Part shown: piece after piece, positions 3,685-58,825 of the stretch
Layout: each line of letters starts with the position of its first letter
Position numbering within the stretch: the stretch's first letter is position 1
Origin: Verrucomicrobiota bacterium
GTDB lineage: Bacteria; Verrucomicrobiota; Verrucomicrobiia; Limisphaerales; SIBE01
DNA: 64,000 nt
Reading direction: 5' to 3'
NCBI GenBank assembly: GCA_016871535.1
Contig: VHCZ01000001.1
Coordinates: forward strand, 22,733-86,732
Program-made: the position numbers and the translations under genes
The notes under the pieces: generated by a model
What the model was told of the DNA's origin: nothing
Databases searched by the model: none
Seen by the model: only the letters and a program-made list of their open reading frames with translations

Positions 3685-3833
3685 CCCTTGTAGCCCAGTT
3701 CAGATCAAAACCCAATCCCAATTGTCAACGGTTCAAGCCACGCCTCACGATTAGTCAGAGACGTGGTGAAAGGCGTCCGGACCGATGACAACTCTCTGGC
3801 TCAGGTTCGTATAGGATCCGCTCCCGGTTGCGA

Positions 3834-4140
3834 TCAGTTTGGCGGTGCGCACTTGATACAGCGCGCGAACTGCCAGAGGGGAAGCATCCGTGAATGCGGT
3901 TTCGAGAATAGGTTCCCCTCCATCAGCCACACCAGGTTGCGGCCGTTCCTGTGCCGCCAGAGCAGATCGGTGTTGCCCAGCAGATTGAACACGCCGGTTC
4001 CCGTGAGTTGCCAGCCGAGATCCGGCTGAGGCTCGAACTCGAGGCTCCGCGCCAGTTCCATTCCATTCAGCAACCAGATCATGTTGCGTCCGGAACGCCG
4101 GTCGCGCCAGACCAGGTCGGTGTAATCAACCTGTAGAGCC
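3834..4140 (-). pseudogene. FG-GAP/VCBS-repeat protein fragment
   Basis: Two tandem units of the DLVWR-x4-G-x-N-x2-WL-x2-G type (DYTDLVWRDRRSGRNMIWLLNG and DLLWRHRNGRNLVWLMEG). Only about 100 codons remain, and the 5' side abuts the palindrome at 4141. Confidence 0.4.
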
Positions 4141-4225
4141 GGTAGGACGAGCCCGTCCCGGCGAGCCGGGGCCGACGTATTGGGAACACGTTGGAGGCGG
4201 CTCGCTGGGACAGGCTCGCCCTACC
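4141..4225. repeat. 85-bp long imperfect palindrome, GGTAGGGCGAGCC family (REPIN-like), copy 1 of 4
   Basis: GGTAGGaCGAGCCcGTCCCgGCGAGCCG...CGGCTCGCTGGGACaGGCTCGCCCTACC. Other copies are at 27358, 40327 and 56106. Confidence 0.85.
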
Positions 4226-4285
4226 GAAGTCAAACCGAGAAGTGCGGGAATCACGCGCTCAATTCTCCTTTTCAAAGTTACGCTG

Positions 4286-17529: not shown

Positions 17530-17573
17530 ACCGTGATCTTAGCGCAGCTTGATTGCTGGGTCTCAACCCCTCA

Positions 17574-17846
17574 GAGCGTGTCCGAAAATTGCGCGGGGTC
17601 CTGCGGCGAGGGATTTTGGCTGTGGCCAAGGCGGCGAGGTCCGAGCATCCCCAACGCGGGCTGTAAGGACCGAGCCAACGCAGGCCACGGACAAAAGACC
17701 CGCCGCCCGGAGGGTTTTCGCGCCAAAGGCCGCCTGGCTTCGTTGCTCCTCAGTCGAAGATCCAGGGAGGATATTCTCCTTCGTCGCGCCTCGCCATCCG
17801 GCCTTTGGCGCGAAAACAGGACCCCGCGGAATTTTCGGACACGCTC
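17574..17846. mobile_element. MITE-A copy 1 (273 bp, non-autonomous)
   Basis: 30-bp terminal inverted repeats GAGCGTGTCCGAAAATT(g/c)CGCGGGGTCCTG. Direct TCA flanks at 17571-17573 and 17847-17849. No transposase-like ORF. 272/273 identical to the inverted copy at 38739-39011. Confidence 0.9.
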
Positions 17847-17855
17847 TCAAAGATT

Positions 17856-17898
17856 TTGACACTTGAGGGTTGACGAAATACAAAATTAAAATATCTTC
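17856..17898 (+). promoter_or_regulatory. Candidate metK promoter region
   Basis: Either TTGACA (17856-17861), 17 nt, TACAAA, or TTGACG (17870-17875), 16 nt, TATCTT. An AT-rich leader precedes metK. The region starts 10 nt from the MITE-A end. Confidence 0.3.
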
Positions 17899-17946
17899 CT
17901 ATCCTGATACGTCAATATGTATCTCTTAAAATCACCTCGAATCTGA

Positions 17947-19125
17947 ATGAGCAAAAACTACATCTTCTCCTCCGAGTCCGTCGGCGAAGGCCATCCCGAC
18001 AAGGTCTGCGATACGATCTCTGATGCCGTCCTGGATGCTTGCCTCGCGCAGGACAAATTCAGCCGCGTCGCTTGCGAGTGCTACGCCAAGAGCAACCTCG
18101 TCATCGTCGGCGGCGAGATCACGACCAAAGCCAGGCTGGACTACAACGCCATCGCCCGCCAGGCCATTCGCGAAATCGGCTACACGCACGACGACGACGT
18201 GTTCCACGCGGATCGGGTGTTGATCATGAACGCGATCACGCAACAAAGTCCGGACATCGCGCAAGGAGTGGATGCTCGTTCGGCCGAAGGCAAGGAGACT
18301 GCCGAGCAAGGGGCTGGAGACCAGGGATTGATGTTCGGCTACGCCACCAATGAGACTCCGGAATTGATGCCCGCGCCCATCATGTACGCCCATCAACTTG
18401 GCCGCGAACTCAATCGCATCCGGAAGAACGGAAAGGTGAAATGGCTGCGCCCCGATTCCAAGACGCAAGTCTCCGTTCAGTACGTGGACGACCAGCCTGT
18501 CCAAATCACCAACGTGGTTGTCTCCACTCAGCACTCCGCCGATGTCAAGCACCGCACCATCAAAGAATTTGTCATTGAGGAGGTCATCAGAAAGGTTCTG
18601 CCAAAGCATCTGCTCCGCAAAACCACTAAGTTTCTCATCAATCCCACCGGCCGATTTGTCGTGGGCGGGCCGCAAGGCGACACCGGTTTGACCGGACGCA
18701 AGATCATCGTCGATTCCTACGGCGGGATGGGCCGTCACGGCGGCGGCGCCTTCTCGGGCAAGGATCCCTCCAAAGTGGACCGCAGCGCGGCTTACATGGG
18801 ACGCTACGTGGCAAAGAACATCGTGGCTTCCGGCCTCGCGACCAGCGCAGAAATCCAGTTTGCTTACGCCATCGGCCATCCCGATCCCGTCAGCGTTTGC
18901 GTGAACACGTTTGGCACGGGCCTGGTTCCGGATGATTTGATCGAGAAAGCCGTGTGCGAAGTGTTCAGTTTCAAACCGGCGCACATCATCCGGCAGTTGG
19001 ACTTGTTGCGCCCGATCTATTCGCGAACCACCAACTACGGCCACTTTGGCAAAGTCGATGACCTCGAAAGCATTTCCTGGGAACGCACAGACAAAGCCGC
19101 GGCCCTGAAACGCGCCGTGAAATGA
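17947..19125 (+). CDS. metK: S-adenosylmethionine synthetase
   Basis: [10 protein letters not shown] and [19 protein letters not shown]; full-length MetK. Confidence 0.97.
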
Positions 19126-21551: not shown

Positions 21552-21903
21552 GTGTTGCGATTTTCCAAAGCCCACAATAATTTCGGCGCCGAAGCGGCAT
21601 ACTGATCAGACCGTGGGAATAGAATACATTTTGCCAGGAGGGATTTTGGCCAGCCGCGAGGAGCGCGCGAAGCGGTGTATCCCTGCGATCCACAACGAGC
21701 GAGCGACGAAGCGGCGGGCCAAAAGACCCCTCGCCCTGCGGGTTGCGCCGCATTTGGGCTCTGGCTTCGTTGCTCCTCAGTCGAAGATCCACCAGGGATA
21801 TTCTCCTTCGTCGCGCCTGAGCCCAAATGCGACGCAACAAAGTGTATTCTATCCCACGGTCTGATCAGTAAATGCCGCGCTCCGACGTATTGCGAAGCAA
21901 CAC
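21552..21903. mobile_element. MITE-B (core-related element, termini unresolved)
   Basis: Inverted repeats ACTGATCAGACCGTGGGAATAGAATAC (from 21601) and GTATTCTATCCCACGGTCTGATCAGT (to 21869). Weaker pairing extends out to GTGTTGC (21552) / GCAACAC (21903). It contains the MITE-A 57-nt core at 21761-21817 (53/57 by eye). Confidence 0.6.
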
Positions 21904-24828: not shown

Positions 24829-25643
24829 TTGGAGCAGTATTCAGCCGCAGTGTTCAGCCTGTGCCGCTCGATTCGAATTCAGTTCTTTGCGTCCCTGCTT
24901 TTTGTCTTGAGCCTGCCCTCCGGCCGGGCCGCCCCTCTGCAAACGCCGGACGACTCCGAATTCACGGTCCGCACCTGGCGGTGGAGGACGGGCTGCCTTC
25001 CAATTCGGTGCTGGCGATCACGCAGACACCCGGCGGTTACCTGATCGGAGAGTTCGCCGGGCGGGTCCGAAAAGTGTCGCCCTCCGTTATCACGGCCGCA
25101 ATCGACATCAAGCCCGGCACGTATCCCAATGCGATCAACCTCGGCTCGAACGGCGCGATCCCTGTGGCGATCCTCAGCAGCGCTGACTTCGACGCGGCAA
25201 CCGTCAATGTTGCGACCGTCACGCTCGCGAGCGCGCCGGTCAAGATACTGTGCAGACCGTGGGATTGACGACAGATCGACCGGAGAACCGTAGCGCAGAT
25301 TTTCAATCTGCGGTATCGCCGATTTCCAATCGGCGGGGCGCCGGCAAGTCCCAGCGGGCTCGGACTGGGAGACGCCCCGCAGAATACAATTCTGCGATAC
25401 GGCAGAGTGCAACTCCGCGCTACGAGCTTTGTCGTCCATCCCGCGGACCAAGCAGTAACAGGCAAAGGCAAATACCTCGCTTCCATCCAGGACGTAAATG
25501 GCGATGGGAGACTCGACCTGGTCCCGCACGTGGACACGACGGCGCTCGCGTTAACCGGAGACGCAGCCGTGGCCGTGCTCGAGGGCCGCACATTGACCGG
25601 GCAAGCGATCCGCGGCACCGACTCGGTGCGCCTCGTGCCGTAG
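24829..25643 (+). pseudogene. Mosaic remnant of secreted protein gene(s)
   Basis: Signal peptide plus FTVRTWR in one frame, then VEDGLPSNSVLAITQTPGGYL (regulator-propeller-type N-terminus) in another. This is fused abruptly to IDIKPGTYPNAINLGSNGAIPVAILSSADFDAATV... The repeat at 25290-25423 interrupts it, and it resumes as ...IQDVNGDGRLDLVPHVDT...DSVRLVP* (ORF 25407..25643). Confidence 0.55.
25290..25423. repeat. 134-bp palindromic array of GTAG-headed hairpin modules (REP-like)
   Basis: GTAGCGCAGattttcaatCTGCGgtATCGCCGATTtccAATCGGCG...CCCAGcgggctcggaCTGGG...CTGCGATACGGCAGagtgcaaCTcCGCGCTAC. Confidence 0.8.
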
Positions 25644-25757
25644 TTCCGTGGAACCACCGAACCATTTATCCACCCATCCGAAATCCCCAAAAATCCGACC
25701 GACCGAAGAAATGATGGCCCCATGAAAACCAACCGGACCATGAAGACGGCCAACCCC

Positions 25758-25812
25758 GTAGCGCAGAGTTGCACTCTGCCGTATCGCCGATTTGCAATCG
25801 GCAGGGCGCCGA
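25758..25812. repeat. Half-array of the same GTAG-headed modules
   Basis: GTAGCGCAGagttgcactCTGCcgtATCGCCGATTtgcAATCGGCag... Confidence 0.7.
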
Positions 25813-25898
25813 CAAATTCCAGAACCCTCGACTGCGCCAGCGTCTGGCAGAGGTTCTTCGCTTGTTTCGAGGAACGCTGTGATCAGTAATGAACGCTC

Positions 25899-26006
25899 CG
25901 TTCCCCCTCACCCCGGCCCTCTCCCTTGGGGAGAGGGTGAGCCAATCGCCACACGTCTCCCGACCCGACGTTCCGGACTTGCTCCAGCGCGGCACACGAA
26001 GTTCCG
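25899..26006. repeat. Truncated copy of the 144-bp composite palindrome
   Basis: The left module CGTTCCCCCTCACCCCGGCCCTCTCCCttggGGAGAGGG plus a central segment match the 58580-58723 copy (CCGGACTTGCyCCAGCGCGGC). The right module is missing. Confidence 0.7.
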
Positions 26007-26024
26007 TCCTCACGAACCTGATTC

Positions 26025-26391: not shown

Positions 26392-26542
26392 TCGCCCCAG
26401 CCCACCGGGGCGGGGCGGCGCCTGGCAGGCTGCGGCGTTGCTCGTCGGTCACAGCCTCACCGGGGGGCTGCTCCCTCCTCGCGCCTTGCATCCGGCCAGG
26501 CGGCGCTCCCGCCAAAACCCCAAGTTATTTTTGAGCAGACCC
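26392..26542. mobile_element. Truncated MITE-C (right half only)
   Basis: CGCCCCAGCCC...CCGCCAAAACCccAAGTTATTTTTGaGCAGACCC matches the right half of 58278-58547. It is followed by TTA, and the left half is absent. Confidence 0.75.
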
Positions 26543-27357: not shown

Positions 27358-27440
27358 GGTAGGGCGAGCCGGTCCCCAGCGAGCCGGATCGGACGTGTTC
27401 CAAGCTCGTCGAGCGGCTCGCCGGGGCGGACTCGCCCACC
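27358..27440. repeat. 83-bp GGTAGGGCGAGCC palindrome, copy 2
   Basis: GGTAGGGCGAGCCgGTCCCCAGCGAGCCG...GAGCGGCTCGCCGGGGCGGACTCGCCCACC. It starts 11 nt after the preceding stop codon. Confidence 0.85.
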
Positions 27441-36950: not shown

Positions 36951-37091
36951 GAGCCTGTCTGAAAAATGGGTGGAACGGGCTACCAGCCCGTGTTTGGCGG
37001 CAACCTGCCGCCAAAAGGCCCGGCGGGCTGGTAGCCCGCCGCAACAGGCCGGTGGCCTGTTCCACCCAGAAGACAATTTTCAGACAGGCTC
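36951..37091. mobile_element. MITE-D (141 bp)
   Basis: Terminal inverted repeats GAGCCTGTCTGAAAA (perfect 15 bp, weaker pairing further in). Direct TAA flanks at 36948-36950 and 37092-37094. Internal hairpins GGCTACCAGCCCG/CGGGCTGGTAGCC. It lies 52 nt upstream of the ilvD ATG. Confidence 0.8.
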
Positions 37092-38287: not shown

Positions 38288-38320
38288 AATCCCCTCTCGA
38301 AGAAAAGTATCGCTGTAGTG

Positions 38321-38354
38321 TTAACCCATTTAACGATTTAACGTTGTAACGATT
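38321..38354. repeat. TAACGAT-type tandem tract
   Basis: TTAACCCATTTAACGATTTAACGTTGTAACGATT. Confidence 0.6.
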
Positions 38355-38380
38355 TGGCTGCGGCGTCAGCCGCGCTGGGT

Positions 38381-39646
38381 CTATTCGCGCTTTCCATGTT
38401 CGCCTGCTACATGGGCAAAAGCGTAGAAGTGGTTCTCCGTCCGCACGTAGAGAGTGTCCTCCACGATGGCGGGCGTGGCCAGGATCGGCTCGCCGAAGTT
38501 GTTTCGGGCCAGCACCTCCAGCGATTCGCCGGCGCGGTAAATCACCACCACGCCCGGCTGCGACGCCACACAGATTTTTCCATTCGCGGCCACGGGCGAG
38601 GCATAGTAATCCCCAAGGGCGCCGAGGCTTTCCTCCTGATAGGCGGCCTGACCGGTCTTCGCGTCAAAGCAAGAAACCAGCCCGCCGTTTTTCACCAGGT
38701 AAACCCGGCCTTCGTAGAACAGCGGCGTGGGGACGTAAGAGCGTGTCCGAAAATTCCGCGGGGTCCTGTTTTCGCGCCAAAGGCCGGATGGCGAGGCGCA
38801 ACGAAGGAGAATATCCTCCCTGGATCTTCGACTGAGGAGCAACGAAGCCAGGCGGCCTTTGGCGCGAAAACCCTCCGGGCGGCGGGTCTTTTGTCCGTGG
38901 CCTGCGTTGGCTCGGTCCTTACAGCCCGCGTTGGGGATGCTCGGACCTCGCCGCCTTGGCCACAGCCAAAATCCCTCGCCGCAGGACCCCGCGCAATTTT
39001 CGGACACGCTCTAAGGCAGCCCGCGCTTTTGTTTCCAGACCACGTGTGAGGCCGTGACTTCGCCGCAGCCATCCGGTCGCACGGCCAGAAGCGCATTCTC
39101 GGACCGGTCAAAAATGTTCGCGATGGATTCCCATTCCGCCTGCGTGATCCATCCATCTTTGTTGGCATCGACATAAAGGAAATGCTGTTTGGCCGGACCG
39201 GACGGCGCTTCGTCGCGGGTGAGTTGGCCGTCGTGGTTTTGATCGCCTCGCTCCAGCAACGCGGAAAATGGCGGCAGCTTGCTCACGCCCGAACCGTGCG
39301 TCCAGCCGCCCGCGAAGATCAAACCGTCTCCTGCCACGGGCGTCGCCACGATTTCATTCGGCAGGCCTCGAACGCGCCATTGTTCGGCGCCATCGCAGAG
39401 CCGATGCGCCGCGAGCCGGAGAGTGCTGGCCAGGATGATGAATTCCGGTCTCTCTCGCGGCCACAGCAACGGCGTGGCGAACCCGCGTCGGTACTCGGGA
39501 CGATCCAGCTTCCAGATCGTCTCGCCCGTTTGAGCATCCACTGCCAGCAGATAGGAGCCGACATCCTGATCGCAGGCGAGACGCCGCCAGACTGCACGGT
39601 TTGGAAATCGCGTCGCTCGCGATTGCGGAGATGAACAACATCCCAT
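38381..39646 (-). pseudogene. PQQ-like beta-propeller protein with EF-hand pair, split by MITE-A and 5'-truncated
   Basis: Upstream half: SYLLAVDAQTGETIWK, EF-hand loops GDQNHDGQLTRDE and DANKDGWITQAEW, ending ...VVWKQKRGLP. Downstream half starts YVPTPLFYEGRVYLVKNGGLVSCFDAKTGQ... The 273-bp MITE sits exactly between them. The N-terminus and signal peptide are missing. Confidence 0.8.
38739..39011. mobile_element. MITE-A copy 2 (273 bp, inverted relative to copy 1)
   Basis: Same 30-bp terminal inverted repeats. Direct TAA flanks at 38736-38738 and 39012-39014. One mismatch to copy 1 (38800 vs 17785). Confidence 0.92.
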
Positions 39647-40173
39647 TGAAGAGCGACCCGCGCGCCGCCATCTGGCTGCTCGACGCGCTCGACGTCATGC
39701 AGAAGCTTGGCGTGAAGGTGTTGCTCGTGGCCCAGTTCTACAAAGGCGACCTCAAGGGCGACGCGGCGGGCATCGACCGCACCGTGGACATTCTGAAGGA
39801 AGCCGCCCCGCGCGCCGAGAAAGCCGGAGTGATTTTGGGTCTGGAGAATTACCTGAGCGCGGAGGAAAACCTGAACATCATTCAGCGGGTCGGATCGAGA
39901 GCCGTTCAAGTTTACTACGACGTCGGCAATTCTACGGACAAAGGCTACGACATCTACAAAGAGATCCGGCTGCTCAAAGGACAGATTTGCGAGTTCCATT
40001 TCAAGGACGCCGGGTTCCTGCTCGGCCAGGGCCGAATTGATTTCGCGAAGGTTCGGGAGGCGATCGACGAGATTGGATTCTCCGGTTGGGCGCAAATCGA
40101 AGCCGCCGCGCCGAAGGACCTGGTCTCGGATTACCAGGCCGACCTCAAGTATCTGCGCAACTGCTTTTCTTGA
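39601..40173 (+). pseudogene. Xylose-isomerase-like TIM-barrel (sugar phosphate isomerase/epimerase) C-terminal fragment
   Basis: ...GVILGLENYLSAEENLNII..., VQVYYDVGNS, CEFHFKDAGFLLGQGRIDFAKVREAIDEIGFSGWAQIE. About 90 N-terminal residues are missing. The 5' end abuts the truncated beta-propeller gene. Confidence 0.6.
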
Positions 40174-40216: not shown

Positions 40217-40326
40217 CCCATGAACCGTTCCTCCGGACCGTGGCCTTTAGGCCGCTTTAGCGCTGGCCTCCAGAGAGTGCGCGGAAGCAGCCTGAAGGCT
40301 GCGGTCCGCACGGTTTCCGGTTCATC
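40217..40326. repeat. about 110-bp palindrome, CCTTTAGGC/GCCTGAAGGC family, copy 2
   Basis: CCCATGAACCGTTCCTCCGGACCGTGGCCTTTAGGC...GCAGCCTGAAGGCTGCGGTCCGCACGGTTTCCGGTTCATCGG. It is preceded by the hairpin GGGCAGGCttccAGCCTGtC (40185-40204). Confidence 0.8.
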
Positions 40327-40409
40327 GGTAGGGCGAGCCTGTCCCAGCGAGCCGAGTCGGACGTGTTCCACGCGCGTCGAGCGGCTCGCTGGGACGGACT
40401 CGTCCTACC
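40327..40409. repeat. 83-bp GGTAGGGCGAGCC palindrome, copy 3
   Basis: GGTAGGGCGAGCCTGTCCCAGCGAGCCG...CGGCTCGCTGGGACGGACTCGTCCTACC. It directly abuts the previous repeat. Confidence 0.85.
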
Positions 40410-40483
40410 GCGTTCACGACGAGAGCAAATCAAGCGTAAGCCGGTCTGAACCGGCGAGACCCGGACAAATCGTCGCTGCTGGT

Positions 40484-43255: not shown

Positions 43256-43341
43256 GCCGGGATCATTCGCGGCCCCTCCGGCAAGTCAACGTGAAGTTAT
43301 TCACCGAAAGGCTAAGGCGTATCTATTCAGTCCGACGGCTC

Positions 43342-43485
43342 CGTTCCCCTCACCCCGGCCTTCTCCCCAGGGGAGAGGGAGAACATTTCCTGGCCGGTGG
43401 TTCAGTTCACCATTCGGGGACCATTCCTGCGTTGGAAAAAACAACTCCCTCTCCCTGAGGGAGAGGGCTGGGGTGAGGGGGAACG
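43342..43485. repeat. 144-bp composite palindrome (CCCTCACCCC.../...GGGGTGAGGG), full copy
   Basis: The left module CGTTCCCCTCACCCCGGCCtTCTCCCcaggGGAGAGGGAGAAC and the right module CTCCCTCTCCCtgagGGAGAGGGCTGGGGTGAGGGGGAACG are mutually inverted. The centre is unique. Confidence 0.85.
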
Positions 43486-49508: not shown

Positions 49509-51475
49509 GTTCTTTTCAGCCCTTTTGGGGAATCCCCCGGCCACCGAGCTTCGAGGGCGCCGTTCCTCCTCACCCCGGCCCTCTCCCTCAGAGAGAGGGA
49601 GACATGGATTGCAGCCTCCACCATTCCGACCTCCATGAATCGACCCATCACTCCCTTCGATTTCACCCTCTCCCCAAGGGAGAGGGCCGGGGTGAGGGGG
49701 AAGAGCATGCGAGCGTATCCACGGCGTTTTTGTTTCACCGCGCGCTCGGATTGGCTTTTCTTCATTTGATCCTTCTATTCAGCGGCCTGGCTTTCGCGGA
49801 CGAAGTTCCGGAGAGCGACGTCGTTTTCCGAGCCCTCAGCGATGAGCTGAAGCGGACGATGACGTTGCGCCTGGCGGATCTCGATAAACCGTACTTCGTC
49901 CAGTATTCCGTCGATGACACGGCCACCTATCGCATCACCGCTTCGTATGGCTCGATTGTAAACTCGGATCAAAACCGTTCCCGCATTTTTCAGAGTCAGG
50001 TCCGAGTCGGCGCCTACGACCTCGACAATTCAAATTTTGTCGGACGCGGCGGCGGCCAGCGCGGTCTCAGCGGCAGCGCGGAGCTTCCCGTGGATGACGA
50101 TTATGCGGGCTTGCGGCACGCGATCTGGCTCGCCACGGACGCCCAGTACAAGGACGCCGTGGAAACGCTGACGCAAAAGCGCGCTTACATGAAAGACCGC
50201 AACGTCCAGGAGCGCGCGGCGGATTTCGCCCAAGCCGGCGCCGTCACCGTAATCCAGCCCCGGCTCAACCTCTCCATCGATTCCAAGGCGTGGGAGGATT
50301 ATGCGCGCCGCATTTCCGCACGTTTTGCGAGTTATCGCCACATTCAGAGCGCAGACTTGAGCCTCGTCGCGGGCGTGGAAAACCGTTACCTCGTGAATTC
50401 GGAGGGCTCCCGTCTTCGCTACACCGACACGGGCGCTCTCCTGCGAATCAGCGCGGGATCCCAGGCGCCGGATGGCCAGCGGGTTGCGGATTCGCTGGCC
50501 TATTACGCGTCCTCGCTGGAGGGGCTTCCCGCATTGGAAAAAGTCCTGGCCGACGTCGAGGAACTGGCGCAGAGGCTGGCCTCGATGCTGAAGGCCCCGG
50601 TGTTGGAAGATTACACGGGGCCGGTGTTGTTCGACGGTGTTGCGACTGCGCAGTTGTTCCGCCAACTCCTTGCCGCCGGCCTCGCAGGCCAGCCTGAGCC
50701 CGTGGGCTCACAACGGCGCGCTTTGCAGAGCGGCGACGACCTTGAAACGCGATTGGGCAAGCGCATTCTGCCCACGACATTTCACATCTACGATGATCCG
50801 CGCAACCGGAAATTCCAGGACACATTCCTCGCCGGCCATTATCAGTTCGACGACGAAGGGGTTCCGGCGGAGCGCGTGGAACTCGTGGTCGAGGGCAAAC
50901 TCGACGGCATGATCATGTCGCGGACGCCGACGAAACAATTCGCGAAATCCAACGGGCACGGCCGCCGTGTCGGCGGGGAAACGCCGCGTTCGGCAATCGG
51001 CTGCCTTTACATCGAAGCTGCCAAGGGCTTGAGTCCGGACGAGCTGAAGAAAGAACTGATCGACGCCGCCGAGGCGGAAGGACTCAAATTCGGGTTGCGA
51101 ATCACCGCGCTTTCGGGCCGCGTTGGTGGGACGGCTGGCTTTGGCGGGCCAGGCGGGCGATTCGGCCGCGGCGGCGGGCGCGGTGGCGCGGGACGTTTGG
51201 TTGGCGATCCGATCTCGATTTACAAGGTGTATGTCGCGGATGGCCGGGAAGAGCCGGTGAGGGGCTGCGAGTTCAGCGCGATCGATTTACGGAGCTTGCG
51301 CCGGATCATCGCGGCCGGGAGCGCGCAGAGCGTGCACAACAGCGCCGGGGGCACCGCGCCGGCGTCTTCCGTGATCGCTCCGGCGGTGTTGATCGAAGAA
51401 CTGGAGCTGTCGCGCATCCGGCAAGAAGCGGAGAAGAAACCCATCCTGGAAGCGCCGCATGCGAGGTCGAGGTGA
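49505..51475 (+). CDS. TldD/PmbA-family protein (PmbA-like partner)
   Basis: Family blocks throughout (e.g. FDDEGVPAERVELV, FAKSNGHGRR). No HExxxGH seen. Gly/Arg-rich insert GGTAGFGGPGGRFGRGGGRGGAGR. ATG 49505 overlaps the upstream stop, but codons about 19-67 are the 144-bp repeat. TTG 49730 would give a clean signal peptide (FHRALGLAFLHLILLFSGLAFA). Confidence 0.8.
   Translation: MSSFQPFWGIPRPPSFEGAVPPHPGPLPQREGDMDCSLHHSDLHESTHHSLRFHPLPKGEGRGEGEEHASVSTAFLFHRALGLAFLHLILLFSGLAFADEVPESDVVFRALSDELKRTMTLRLADLDKPYFVQYSVDDTATYRITASYGSIVNSDQNRSRIFQSQVRVGAYDLDNSNFVGRGGGQRGLSGSAELPVDDDYAGLRHAIWLATDAQYKDAVETLTQKRAYMKDRNVQERAADFAQAGAVTVIQPRLNLSIDSKAWEDYARRISARFASYRHIQSADLSLVAGVENRYLVNSEGSRLRYTDTGALLRISAGSQAPDGQRVADSLAYYASSLEGLPALEKVLADVEELAQRLASMLKAPVLEDYTGPVLFDGVATAQLFRQLLAAGLAGQPEPVGSQRRALQSGDDLETRLGKRILPTTFHIYDDPRNRKFQDTFLAGHYQFDDEGVPAERVELVVEGKLDGMIMSRTPTKQFAKSNGHGRRVGGETPRSAIGCLYIEAAKGLSPDELKKELIDAAEAEGLKFGLRITALSGRVGGTAGFGGPGGRFGRGGGRGGAGRLVGDPISIYKVYVADGREEPVRGCEFSAIDLRSLRRIIAAGSAQSVHNSAGGTAPASSVIAPAVLIEELELSRIRQEAEKKPILEAPHARSR
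49561..49704. repeat. 144-bp composite palindrome, full copy
   Basis: CGTTCCTCCTCACCCCGGCCCTCTCCCtcagaGAGAGGGAGAC ... CACCCTCTCCCcaagGGAGAGGGCCGGGGTGAGGGGGAAG. Confidence 0.85.
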
Positions 51476-56105: not shown

Positions 56106-56189
56106 CTCTGGGCGAGCCTGTCCTAGCGAGCCGATTTCGGACGTGTTCCAAGCGCGTGAAGCGGCTCGCCGGGACGGACTCGCCCTACC
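56106..56189. repeat. GGTAGGGCGAGCC palindrome, copy 4
   Basis: GGGCGAGCCTGTCCTAGCGAGCCG...CGGCTCGCCGGGACGGACTCGCCCTACC. Confidence 0.8.
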
Positions 56190-56308
56190 GGTTTCCTGGA
56201 CCGTTTGCTTGGAACCGTGACTATGGCAGCTTATCACGGATCGCCCGCGCGACCTGCGCGACCTCGACGTTCTTGCGCCCCGCACTGAAAACTCATACAA
56301 CCCTTCGC

Positions 56309-58192: not shown

Positions 58193-58277
58193 TCTGGCAG
58201 TTTATCTTTGGCTCACATAGGCGCCGTGAAGCTCGACATTCAAGCAGACCATCGTTTCCGGTTTTACGCTGCCTTAA

Positions 58278-58547
58278 GGGTCTGTGCAAAAATAAATTCC
58301 GGTTTTGCCGGAGGTGATTTCGCTTTCTGGCGAGGCACGACGAAGGAGCATAGCCAGGGCTCCGCGACTGAGGAGAAACGAAGCCAGAAAGCGAAATCGC
58401 CCCAGCCCTCCGGGGCGGGGCGGCGCCTGGCCGGCTGCGGCGTTGCTCGTCGGTCACAGCCCCAAAACGGGGATGCTCCCTCCTCGCGCCTTGCATCCGG
58501 CCAGGCGGCGCTCCCGCCAAAACCGGAAGTTATTTTTGCACAGACCC
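58278..58547. mobile_element. MITE-C (270 bp)
   Basis: About 33-bp terminal inverted repeats GGGTCTGTGCAAAAATAA(a/c)TTCCGGTTTTG(c/g)CGG. Direct TAA flanks at 58275-58277 and 58548-58550. It contains the shared core in reverse orientation (58329-58385). Confidence 0.85.
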
Positions 58548-58579
58548 TAAGTGGCGGCTGTCGTCGGCGGTTGAGCGGC

Positions 58580-58723
58580 TCGTTCCCCCTCACCCCGGCC
58601 CTCTCCCTCGGGGAGAGGGAGAACCCTGCGCTGTGCTTCCGTGAACCCGACGGATCCGGACTTGCCCCAGCGCGGCCGACGATGTTCCCTCTCCCTGAGG
58701 GAGAGGGTCAGGGTGAAGGGGAA
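58580..58723. repeat. 144-bp composite palindrome, full copy
   Basis: CGTTCCCCCTCACCCCGGCCCTCTCCCtcggGGAGAGGGAGAAC ... CCCTCTCCCtgagGGAGAGGGTCAGGGTGAAGGGGAAG. Confidence 0.85.
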
Positions 58724-58825
58724 GACACTGGAAGACGATCCATCGTATCAGCCACCGAAAACAGAGAGGAGCACCGTTTCTTTGCGCGGAGCCAGACGCA
58801 CCCTGGCTTTTGCTTCGGCTTCAAG

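Follow-up and report, generated by a model that had tools for sequence, protein, structure and literature searches.

The interiors of miniature inverted-repeat transposable elements (MITEs) are usually seen as neutral filler from a parent insertion sequence. In a 64,000-nt stretch of a Verrucomicrobiota bacterium genome (assembly GCA_016871535.1, contig VHCZ01000001.1, positions 22,733 to 86,732; hereafter the window), three MITEs named MITE-A, MITE-B and MITE-C were described in an initial annotation as sharing a 57-nt core while differing in their ends, which raises the question of what this core is and why it should be kept. Here we provide good support for the core as the non-Watson-Crick centre of a hairpin module of approximately 85-105 nt, and the evidence favours a nucleic-acid element that folds and is under selection. 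A conserved interior with interchangeable ends reverses the usual picture of a MITE and points to selection on the folded module, whose two facing conserved strands we call the rod.

Hairpin modules inside the elements

The core had been described as two blocks separated by variable sequence, and an exact match search placed both blocks at 17734-17790 in MITE-A, 21761-21817 in MITE-B and 58329-58385 in MITE-C, as annotated. Block 1 (GGCTTCGTTNCTCCTCAGTCG) has four exact matches in the window, at 17736 and 21763 on the plus strand and at 58365-58385 and 38829-38849 on the minus strand (0/100 shuffled windows contained one); the three annotated copies are real, but the copy at 38829-38849 had been overlooked. 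Block 2 (CTCCTTCGTCGYGCC) lies approximately 20 nt downstream of block 1 in each copy, the cores of MITE-A and MITE-B are identical at 53/57 positions, and the inner inverted repeats quoted for the three elements are correct. While the 57-nt core exists as described, the conserved unit is larger, a hairpin module of approximately 85 nt. Every element also bears a second, diverged core copy in inverted orientation (17613-17697, 21643-21725, 58424-58507 and 38888-38972), and in these two-arm elements the conserved unit is the entire interior of approximately 200 nt.

Searches with nhmmer and a covariance model (R1, built from type-I arms only) found nine modules in the window, two each in both copies of MITE-A (A1 and A2), in MITE-B and in MITE-C, and one in a truncated C-type copy. 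The elements and their modules are listed here with R1 scores; classes G and T are two classes of termini considered below.

17574-17846, plus strand: MITE-A copy 1 (A1), 273 nt, two arms, class-G termini (GAGCGTGTCCGAAAA...), TCA duplication at 17571-17573 and 17847-17849
17724-17807, minus strand: hairpin module of A1 arm 1, on the purine-rich strand, holding the core at 17734-17790 (100.5 bits, E 1.6e-23)
17613-17697, plus strand: diverged paralogous module, A1 arm 2 (32.9 bits, E 4.5e-6; rod pattern 11/17, P=0.0016)
21602-21868, plus strand: MITE-B, 267 nt, class-T termini (CTGATCAGACCGTGGGA...), TA duplication at 21600-21601 and 21869-21870, the same two-arm cargo
21745-21835, minus strand: hairpin module of B arm 1, holding the core at 21761-21817 (78.8 bits)
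21643-21725, plus strand: paralogous module, B arm 2 (41.4 bits, E 3e-8; alignment to the core z=6.4)
38739-39011, minus strand: MITE-A copy 2 (A2), 273 nt, TAA duplications at 38736-38738 and 39012-39014, inside a minus-strand β-propeller gene
38778-38861, plus strand: hairpin module of A2 arm 1, holding the fourth core copy at 38795-38849 (97.5 bits)
38888-38972, minus strand: paralogous module, A2 arm 2 (32.9 bits)
58278-58547, minus strand: MITE-C, 270 nt, class-G termini (GGGTCTGTGCAAAAATAA...), TAA duplications at 58275-58277 and 58548-58550
58317-58397, plus strand: hairpin module of C arm 1, holding the core at 58329-58385 (81.1 bits)
58424-58507, minus strand: paralogous module of type II, C arm 2 (75.1 bits; nhmmer E 2e-5)
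26392-26542, plus strand: truncated C-type copy (arm 2 and right terminus), 92% identical to 58397-58548
26419-26502, minus strand: module in the truncated C-type copy (covariance model 63.2 bits)

These elements have the features of MITEs: they are shorter than approximately 500 bp, lack coding capacity, end in terminal inverted repeats (TIRs), are flanked by target-site duplications and occur as dispersed copies. Self-BLAST gave TIRs of 31 nt for A and 35 nt for C; the ends of B are formed by the inverted CTGATCAGACCGTGGGA motif, and A1, A2 and C all start GAG/GGG..TGT...AAAA. A2 is an inverse-orientation copy of A1 with 99.3% identity (self-BLAST, 38738-39016).

Each module is built from a basal Watson-Crick stem specific to its family, a GGC/GCC clamp, two strongly conserved facing strands (the blocks) and a variable apical hairpin. 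Modules occur singly or as an inverted pair; in A1, A2, B and C the two modules of a pair occupy opposite strands, so that the purine-rich strand of A1 arm 2, for example, is the DNA strand opposite to that of arm 1. The segment between the blocks always forms a hairpin, using unrelated sequences (aagatcc/ggatatt, tggag/ctcca, tgggg/cccca, aaggt/acctt, cgtgc/gcacg and cagagcc/ggctatg), and the module flanks likewise always form a stem whose sequence is specific to the family. The spacing between the blocks varies from 14 to 21 nt, which argues against a fixed geometry of double-stranded DNA and for recognition of a fold.

The initial annotation had proposed a covariance model and a test for compensatory changes, and covariation is present in both the basal and the apical stems. 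In a register-controlled alignment of 83 distinct arms (A3), 87.0% of cells fell in standard pairs, compared with 70.0% in shuffles (0/500 reached the observed value) and 39-48% when the register was slid, and double changes were found in 12/15 basal pairs and 6/8 apical pairs. Across 59 distinct modules of all paralogue types, in an alignment fitted to the model structure (A5), 89.3% of cells were paired, against 62.4% in shuffles and 28-43% in slid controls. Double changes occurred in 26/29 pairs of this alignment, including isolated pairs within the rod (CG36/GC21, AU28/GC8/CG3 and GC44/CG12).

The blocks themselves form a non-canonical helix on one strand. The purine strand, the complement of block 1, reads GGCGAGGCGCGACGAAGGAG, hairpin, CGACUGAGGAGCAACGAAGCC, whereas the facing blocks on the block-1 strand are pyrimidine-rich and unable to pair. 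When 5'-GAGGCGCGACGAAGGA-3' is set opposite 5'-GACUGAGGAGCAACGAA-3' on the purine strand, 14/16 positions are Watson-Crick or tandem 5'-GA-3'/3'-AG-5'; composition-preserving shuffles gave 5.1 ± 1.7 positions, and 0/5000 reached 14. One or two Watson-Crick pairs alternate with tandem G·A steps along the rod, together with an invariant C·A/G·A step. Diverged paralogue types have altered rod sequences and keep the alternation of Watson-Crick and G·A pairs (12/16, 13/16 and 11/17, P <= 0.0016). The direct repeat of CTCCTnnGTCG that had been noted within the core is explained as the footprint of this two-fold symmetric helix.

Strand asymmetry and the pattern of conservation

The two strands of a module differ in folding. 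The purine strand was the more stable in 91/100 arms (mean -54.6 vs -46.7 kcal/mol) and in 50/53 second arms, and RNAalifold gave -19.8 for the purine strand and -8.4 for the other. Wobble pairs, counted by fold and by column among related copies, show the same asymmetry in the basal stem, with 71 unique G·U events on the purine strand vs 34 on the other (cell counts, 59 vs 17). The pair that closes the apical hairpin is G-C on the purine strand of 30 modules and G·U on that of 27, and those 27 are A·C on the other strand. The second arm has a wobble excess on its own purine strand (35 vs 22 unique events), on the DNA strand opposite to that of the first arm. In each module the functional strand is probably the purine one.

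Conservation was assessed where the search had not imposed it. Among 51 distinct family-1 elements anchored on block 2 only, every column of the non-anchor block 1 reaches at least 80-90% identity, and conservation is at least 90% in the second-arm rod and in the junction ...CCCGCCGCCCGGAGGG...; variation falls in the Watson-Crick stems, loops and termini. Columns that are invariant across families fall in the core, where those of block 1 are fixed by the search pattern and those of block 2 are not. By this reading of the alignments, the pattern is that of a folded functional element rather than of uniform decay. It supports the earlier suggestion that the core itself is selected, as the stem covariation and the rod support the suggestion of a structure.

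Terminal classes, mobility and distribution

The same interior occurs between at least three to four classes of termini with their respective target duplications: GAG…/TNA, CTGATCAG…/TA, TGTGG…/CTAG and CTGTGACAA…/TA. The 3-bp flanks of class-G elements are identical in 35/70 distinct elements, and all of these are TNA, compared with 4/70 for the next 3 bp outward as a control. The initial annotation had treated the termini of each family as specific to it. This holds for MITE-B, which shares only 1-3/16 terminal nucleotides with any of A, C and three further families and has a TA duplication, but A and C share 11/16 (against 2/16 for B) and both have TNA duplications; together with the three further families they share 8-15/16. 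Judged by terminal sequence, A is akin to C, while B belongs to a genuinely distinct class.

The class-T arrangement of MITE-B was seen at a second site (locus L113), also with a TA duplication. The two-arm interior was also found between ends TGTGGTGTCTCGCAAATAGC with CTAG flanks (L072, L084 and L052) and between ends CTGTGACAATGAGTTTTCG with TA flanks (L092). Of 120 distinct modules with enough flanking sequence, class-G ends flank 75 on both sides and 19 on one side, class-T ends flank 2, and neither class flanks the other 24; five loci inspected from the last group mostly had the other two classes. Conversely, the same terminal classes carry other interiors. A 141-nt MITE at 36951-37091 has class-G termini (GAGCCTGTCTGAAAA), TAA duplications and a different interior that lacks the core. 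Elements at 25247-25830 and in L055, L080, L091, L094 and L117 have termini (CTGTGCAGACCGTGGGATTGACGACAG) that match the ends of MITE-B at 14/16 nt and are preceded by TA, and carry a different cargo of repeated units such as GCGCAGATTTTCAATCTGCGGTATCGCCGATTTCCAATCGGCGGGGCGCC (copies at 25288-25354 and 25756-25822, inverted at 25373-25436). The cargo is modular, as the initial annotation had proposed among its options, with interiors and terminal classes combining in both directions. A cargo common to unrelated termini is unlikely to bring a benefit tied to one transposase.

These MITEs are active and still moving. The near-identical copies A1 and A2 (99.3%) occupy different sites, and removing A2 in silico (282 nt removed by script) left a minus-strand open stretch of 343 aa across the rejoined flanks. 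An exact 276-nt excision of A2 by hand was likewise in frame, reading ...KQKRGLPYVPTPLF..., and the protein so restored has matches to PQQ_2/BamB-like β-propeller and EF-hand models that span the junction (window 38300-39700). A2 thus looks like a recent gene-disrupting insertion into a PQQ_2/BamB-like β-propeller gene. No TIR pair 0.6-3 kb apart with matching ends, as expected of an autonomous insertion sequence (IS), was found in 1.07 Mb of loci and the window.

Other small palindromic elements are inserted within the module at recurrent positions (L003 193-254, L023 2848-2909, L026 601-667 and L120; L009/L028; L013/L027; L031/L039). In different hosts, an element of approximately 60 nt starting GGGCTTCCCAAGCCC has entered the apical stem after ...GGGGTAT; the module may itself be a preferred insertion target.

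A wider collection of both blocks, which had been recommended with the original description, returned 46 stretches of a species-representative genome collection for block 1 and at least 118 metagenome stretches for block 2; both scans demanded an exact 20-mer in one block. Identical copies of MITE-A lie on contigs Ga0194112 to Ga0194132, and none of the loci retrieved is syntenic with the window. The block 1 stretches come nearly all from Verrucomicrobiota metagenome-assembled genomes (MAGs) of several orders, including Verrucomicrobiales, Akkermansiaceae, Limisphaerales, Chthoniobacteraceae and related groups. Module contigs L015, L045, L018, L043, L042 and L034 are binned as Bifidobacterium/Bifidobacteriaceae, Saccharimonadales, Kofleriaceae and Deltaproteobacteria MAGs, and L034 is near-identical to MITE-C of the window, which suggests either mis-binned Verrucomicrobiota contigs or transfer between phyla. 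Neither block matched any of 2.9 million viral contigs, and a BLAST search of MITE-A against 72,556 plasmids gave no match. A check against Rfam 15, also recommended, returned no matching family at the gathering threshold in the window and only chance-level hairpin matches (E up to 10) around A and C. A full-text literature search for the block sequences in both orientations found no paper that prints them.

Possible roles and comparison with known systems

With a conserved sequence in the rod and stems around it that have only to pair, the simplest reading is a protein docking surface. We suggest that the rod, as a non-canonical helix of folded single strand (RNA or single-stranded DNA, ssDNA), would offer a sequence- and shape-specific docking site, most likely to a host factor conserved in Verrucomicrobiota. 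With paired modules on opposite strands, one purine-form rod would be shown whichever strand is transcribed or exposed. RNA from read-through transcription would be the most likely medium, and the module may soften the harm of new insertions or prolong them, for example where it sets a stable or processed end of the RNA. Lineages of MITEs that bear the module would then leave more surviving copies, which would explain unrelated transposon ends around the same cargo. We favour such an RNA-level role in read-through transcripts, which would make insertions more tolerable or durable and let selection act on the element through host fitness, while stopping short of calling it probable.

Several observations weigh against this proposal. 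DNA hairpins, too, tolerate G·T and tandem G·A pairs, so these pairs do not tell RNA and ssDNA apart. There is no sigma-70-like promoter within A or C, the promoter-like sites near 17863-17932 lying outside the element and beside metK, and an intrinsic-terminator scan of the elements gave two weak terminator-like matches, both in C. A bias in orientation to neighbouring genes, which the initial annotation had proposed to look for, was not seen among 42 contexts (8 tandem with the same orientation, 12 tandem with the opposite, 12 divergent and 10 convergent). Covariation in a DNA palindrome can arise without selection, by template-switch correction of quasi-palindromes. Alignment A5 leans toward the model structure by construction, having been fitted to it, although its slid controls and the independent alignment A3 agree. 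In the apical stem it is the pyrimidine strand that shows a conserved G·A and a small number of G·T pairs, and the wobble counts come from related copies and are not independent events.

Several of the same facts would suit a role of the hairpin at the DNA level, a serious possibility that we nonetheless consider rather unlikely. The module would act as an ssDNA or cruciform hairpin, formed on the lagging-strand template or by extrusion, that joins the transposon ends or recruits a structure-specific factor for excision, integration or palindrome maintenance, and such a role would not depend on which transposase acts at the termini. A part in transposition is the simplest source of element-level selection, and it would explain a cargo common to at least three to four terminal classes. 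DNA hairpins accommodate tandem G·A and G·T pairs stably, an inverted pair yields one purine-form hairpin on either strand, and the elements have neither an internal promoter nor a bias to the direction of transcription. However, a mere spacer or fold-back would need no phylum-wide conservation of the rod sequence, and the 1.07 Mb of loci and the window held no autonomous partner in which to inspect the module. DDE transposases that make TA, TNA and CTAG duplications use double-stranded ends, and no such enzyme is known to depend on an internal hairpin.

Neutral ancestry, duplex binding sites and a Shine-Dalgarno role are all less likely than an RNA-level role or a DNA hairpin. A functionless core, inherited (possibly horizontally) from one recently spread ancestor, would owe its conservation and covariation to exact-match sampling and neutral homogenisation of palindromes. 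Both scans did search by exact match to a 20-mer of one block, many of the copies are recent and nearly identical, and quasi-palindrome correction can make paired changes without selection. This explanation is unlikely: the non-anchor block is still at least 80-90% conserved while neighbouring stems are saturated with change, and the cargo occurs with unrelated termini across several orders of the phylum. Moreover, neutral palindrome correction should erase a mismatched rod, yet the mismatches are the most conserved positions and are kept in diverged paralogues.

We think it quite unlikely that the blocks are subterminal direct repeats (CTCCTNNGTCG) in duplex DNA, bound by a transposase or accessory protein and inverted at the two ends in a Harbinger-like manner. 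Each arm does contain direct repeats, the arms are mutually inverted, the 3-bp duplication of class G is typical of the IS5 and PIF/Harbinger superfamily, and Harbinger subterminal motifs are bound by a Myb-like partner. However, the repeat spacing varies (14-21 nt) by roughly half a turn of the helix, the stems that enclose and separate the blocks show covariation that only pairing explains, paralogues alter the repeat sequence yet keep the G·A/Watson-Crick pattern of the rod, and the use of one cargo by unrelated termini makes a site for a single transposase unlikely. A reading of the core complement (CGACNNAGGAG) as a Shine-Dalgarno or anti-Shine-Dalgarno sequence, the former raised in the initial annotation, or of the core as peptide-coding is very improbable: AGGAG and CTCCT motifs do occur twice per core, but no start codon follows the AGGAG motifs at a fixed distance, orientation to downstream genes is unbiased, on the purine strand the motifs form part of the rod, and the cores lack coding potential and differ in length between families by non-multiples of three (57 vs 52 nt, for example).

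Should the rod bind a host factor, it would offer a way into an RNA- or DNA-binding activity of a phylum that is abundant in the environment yet has received little study. It would also be a naturally occurring helix stabilised by tandem G·A pairs in series, and would serve as a model for how non-autonomous elements gain traits that aid their spread or tolerance. The covariance model also permits annotation of these elements, which interrupt genes (as at 38739-39011) and likely fragment Verrucomicrobiota MAG assemblies.

MITEs with structured interiors are already known. The Correia/NEMIS elements of Neisseria, enterobacterial ERIC/IRU and pneumococcal BOX and RUP are short, non-coding, multi-copy MITEs with TIRs, target duplications and long hairpins. 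Their insertions fall within genes as well as between them, the interior can play a part at the RNA level, and BOX is modular. The elements described here differ from these in that one tandem-G·A module of approximately 85 nt occurs phylum-wide, often as an inverted pair, with unrelated termini and different target duplications; the module has no sequence similarity to any of these families and no IHF-like A/T-rich site. As far as searches of the literature show, a phylum-wide serial tandem-G·A module in inverted pairs and with several unrelated terminal classes has not been described. We tentatively propose, as a doubtful but possible extension, that it represents an undescribed class of mobile structured nucleic acid, a hairpin of approximately 85 nt built of alternating Watson-Crick and tandem sheared G·A pairs, which would be the ligand of a Verrucomicrobiota-specific protein and ride MITEs of several transposase superfamilies. 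The cargo and not the termini would then be the unit of selection, and the module would either have been recruited repeatedly or have repeatedly recruited transposon ends.

REP elements are imperfect palindromes of 20-40 nt with an unpaired GTAG or CGTC tag, and REP dimers are sometimes nested in longer palindromes (PMC3733652). REP/REPIN hairpin repeats are mobilised by RAYT (Y1 HUH), often as inverted doublets and with no target duplication. The module resembles them in forming an inverted doublet with one unit correctly oriented on either strand, as in A, B and C, and in being nested as a pair inside terminal repeats. Unlike REP, modules are 85-105 nt long, have no GTAG/CGTC tag at the foot of the hairpin and are moved within elements that have TIRs and target duplications. 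A tblastn search with an approximate E. coli RayT query found RAYT-like (IS200-type Y1) open reading frames (ORFs) in two loci, L108 (2940-3635, also 3759-4058) and L023 (1746-2315). The L108 region forms a tandem duplication with a period of 819 nt, and a GTAG-tagged REP doublet comes after it (4104-4269), while the gene in L023 is bracketed by 90-nt direct repeats (1627-1730 and 2332-2436). In this small sample of fetched loci, both RAYT-like genes are bracketed by other repeats and neither by the module, which speaks against mobilisation by RAYT.

In integron attC and CTX phage attP sites, a folded single strand is recognised selectively; unpaired or mismatched positions in it are conserved, and its terminal hairpin varies. 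The module has similarly conserved mismatches, strand asymmetry and a variable terminal hairpin. By inspection, the RYYYAAC...GTTRRRY core sites of attC are absent, and the inner repeats start GTT... and end ...AAC, the reverse arrangement. Unlike attC and attP, the module was seen with no integrase or cassette array, and its TIRs and target duplications are typical of DDE transposition.

Tandem sheared G·A motifs are found in rRNA, the hammerhead core, the NC stem of k-turns and d(GCGAAGC) mini-hairpins. The module is like these in having 5'-GA-3'/3'-AG-5' steps closed by G-C, with CGAAG twice on the purine strand, and unlike them in that four steps recur every 3-4 positions along one helix. 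A k-turn was rejected for want of a 3-nt bulge. A hammerhead or other self-cleaving ribozyme was considered from CUGAGGAG...CGAAG on the purine strand, but helix II/III is impossible on inspection and there was no Rfam ribozyme match; hairpin-ribozyme and CsrA-site readings were each found by inspection to lack a defining feature.

The target duplications of the IS5/PIF-Harbinger superfamily are reported to be 0, 2 or 3 bp (PMC12730594). Class-G elements, with their GAG... termini and 3-bp TNA duplication, resemble non-autonomous members of this superfamily. The cargo extends beyond class G, and no autonomous partner was found in the 1.07 Mb of loci. Within the superfamily, class G would be closest to the IS1031 group (3 bp, GAG ends in ISfinder).

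MITE-A1 lies in a divergent intergenic region, just upstream of the likely promoter of a metK-like ORF (17947-19125), and the interval between them (17863-17946) holds four sigma-70-like promoter matches where 0.2 are expected. The window also contains two palindromic repeat families. One, of approximately 85 nt, is self-complementary, 75-90% identical among copies and unrelated to the core (4140-4227, 27358-27437, 40326-40410 and 56110-56190). The other, of approximately 145 nt with arms ...CCCTCACCCCGGCCCTCTCCC..GGGGAGAGGG..., is found at 25899-26008, 43336-43483, 49561-49704 and 58581-58725, and one of its copies directly adjoins MITE-C.

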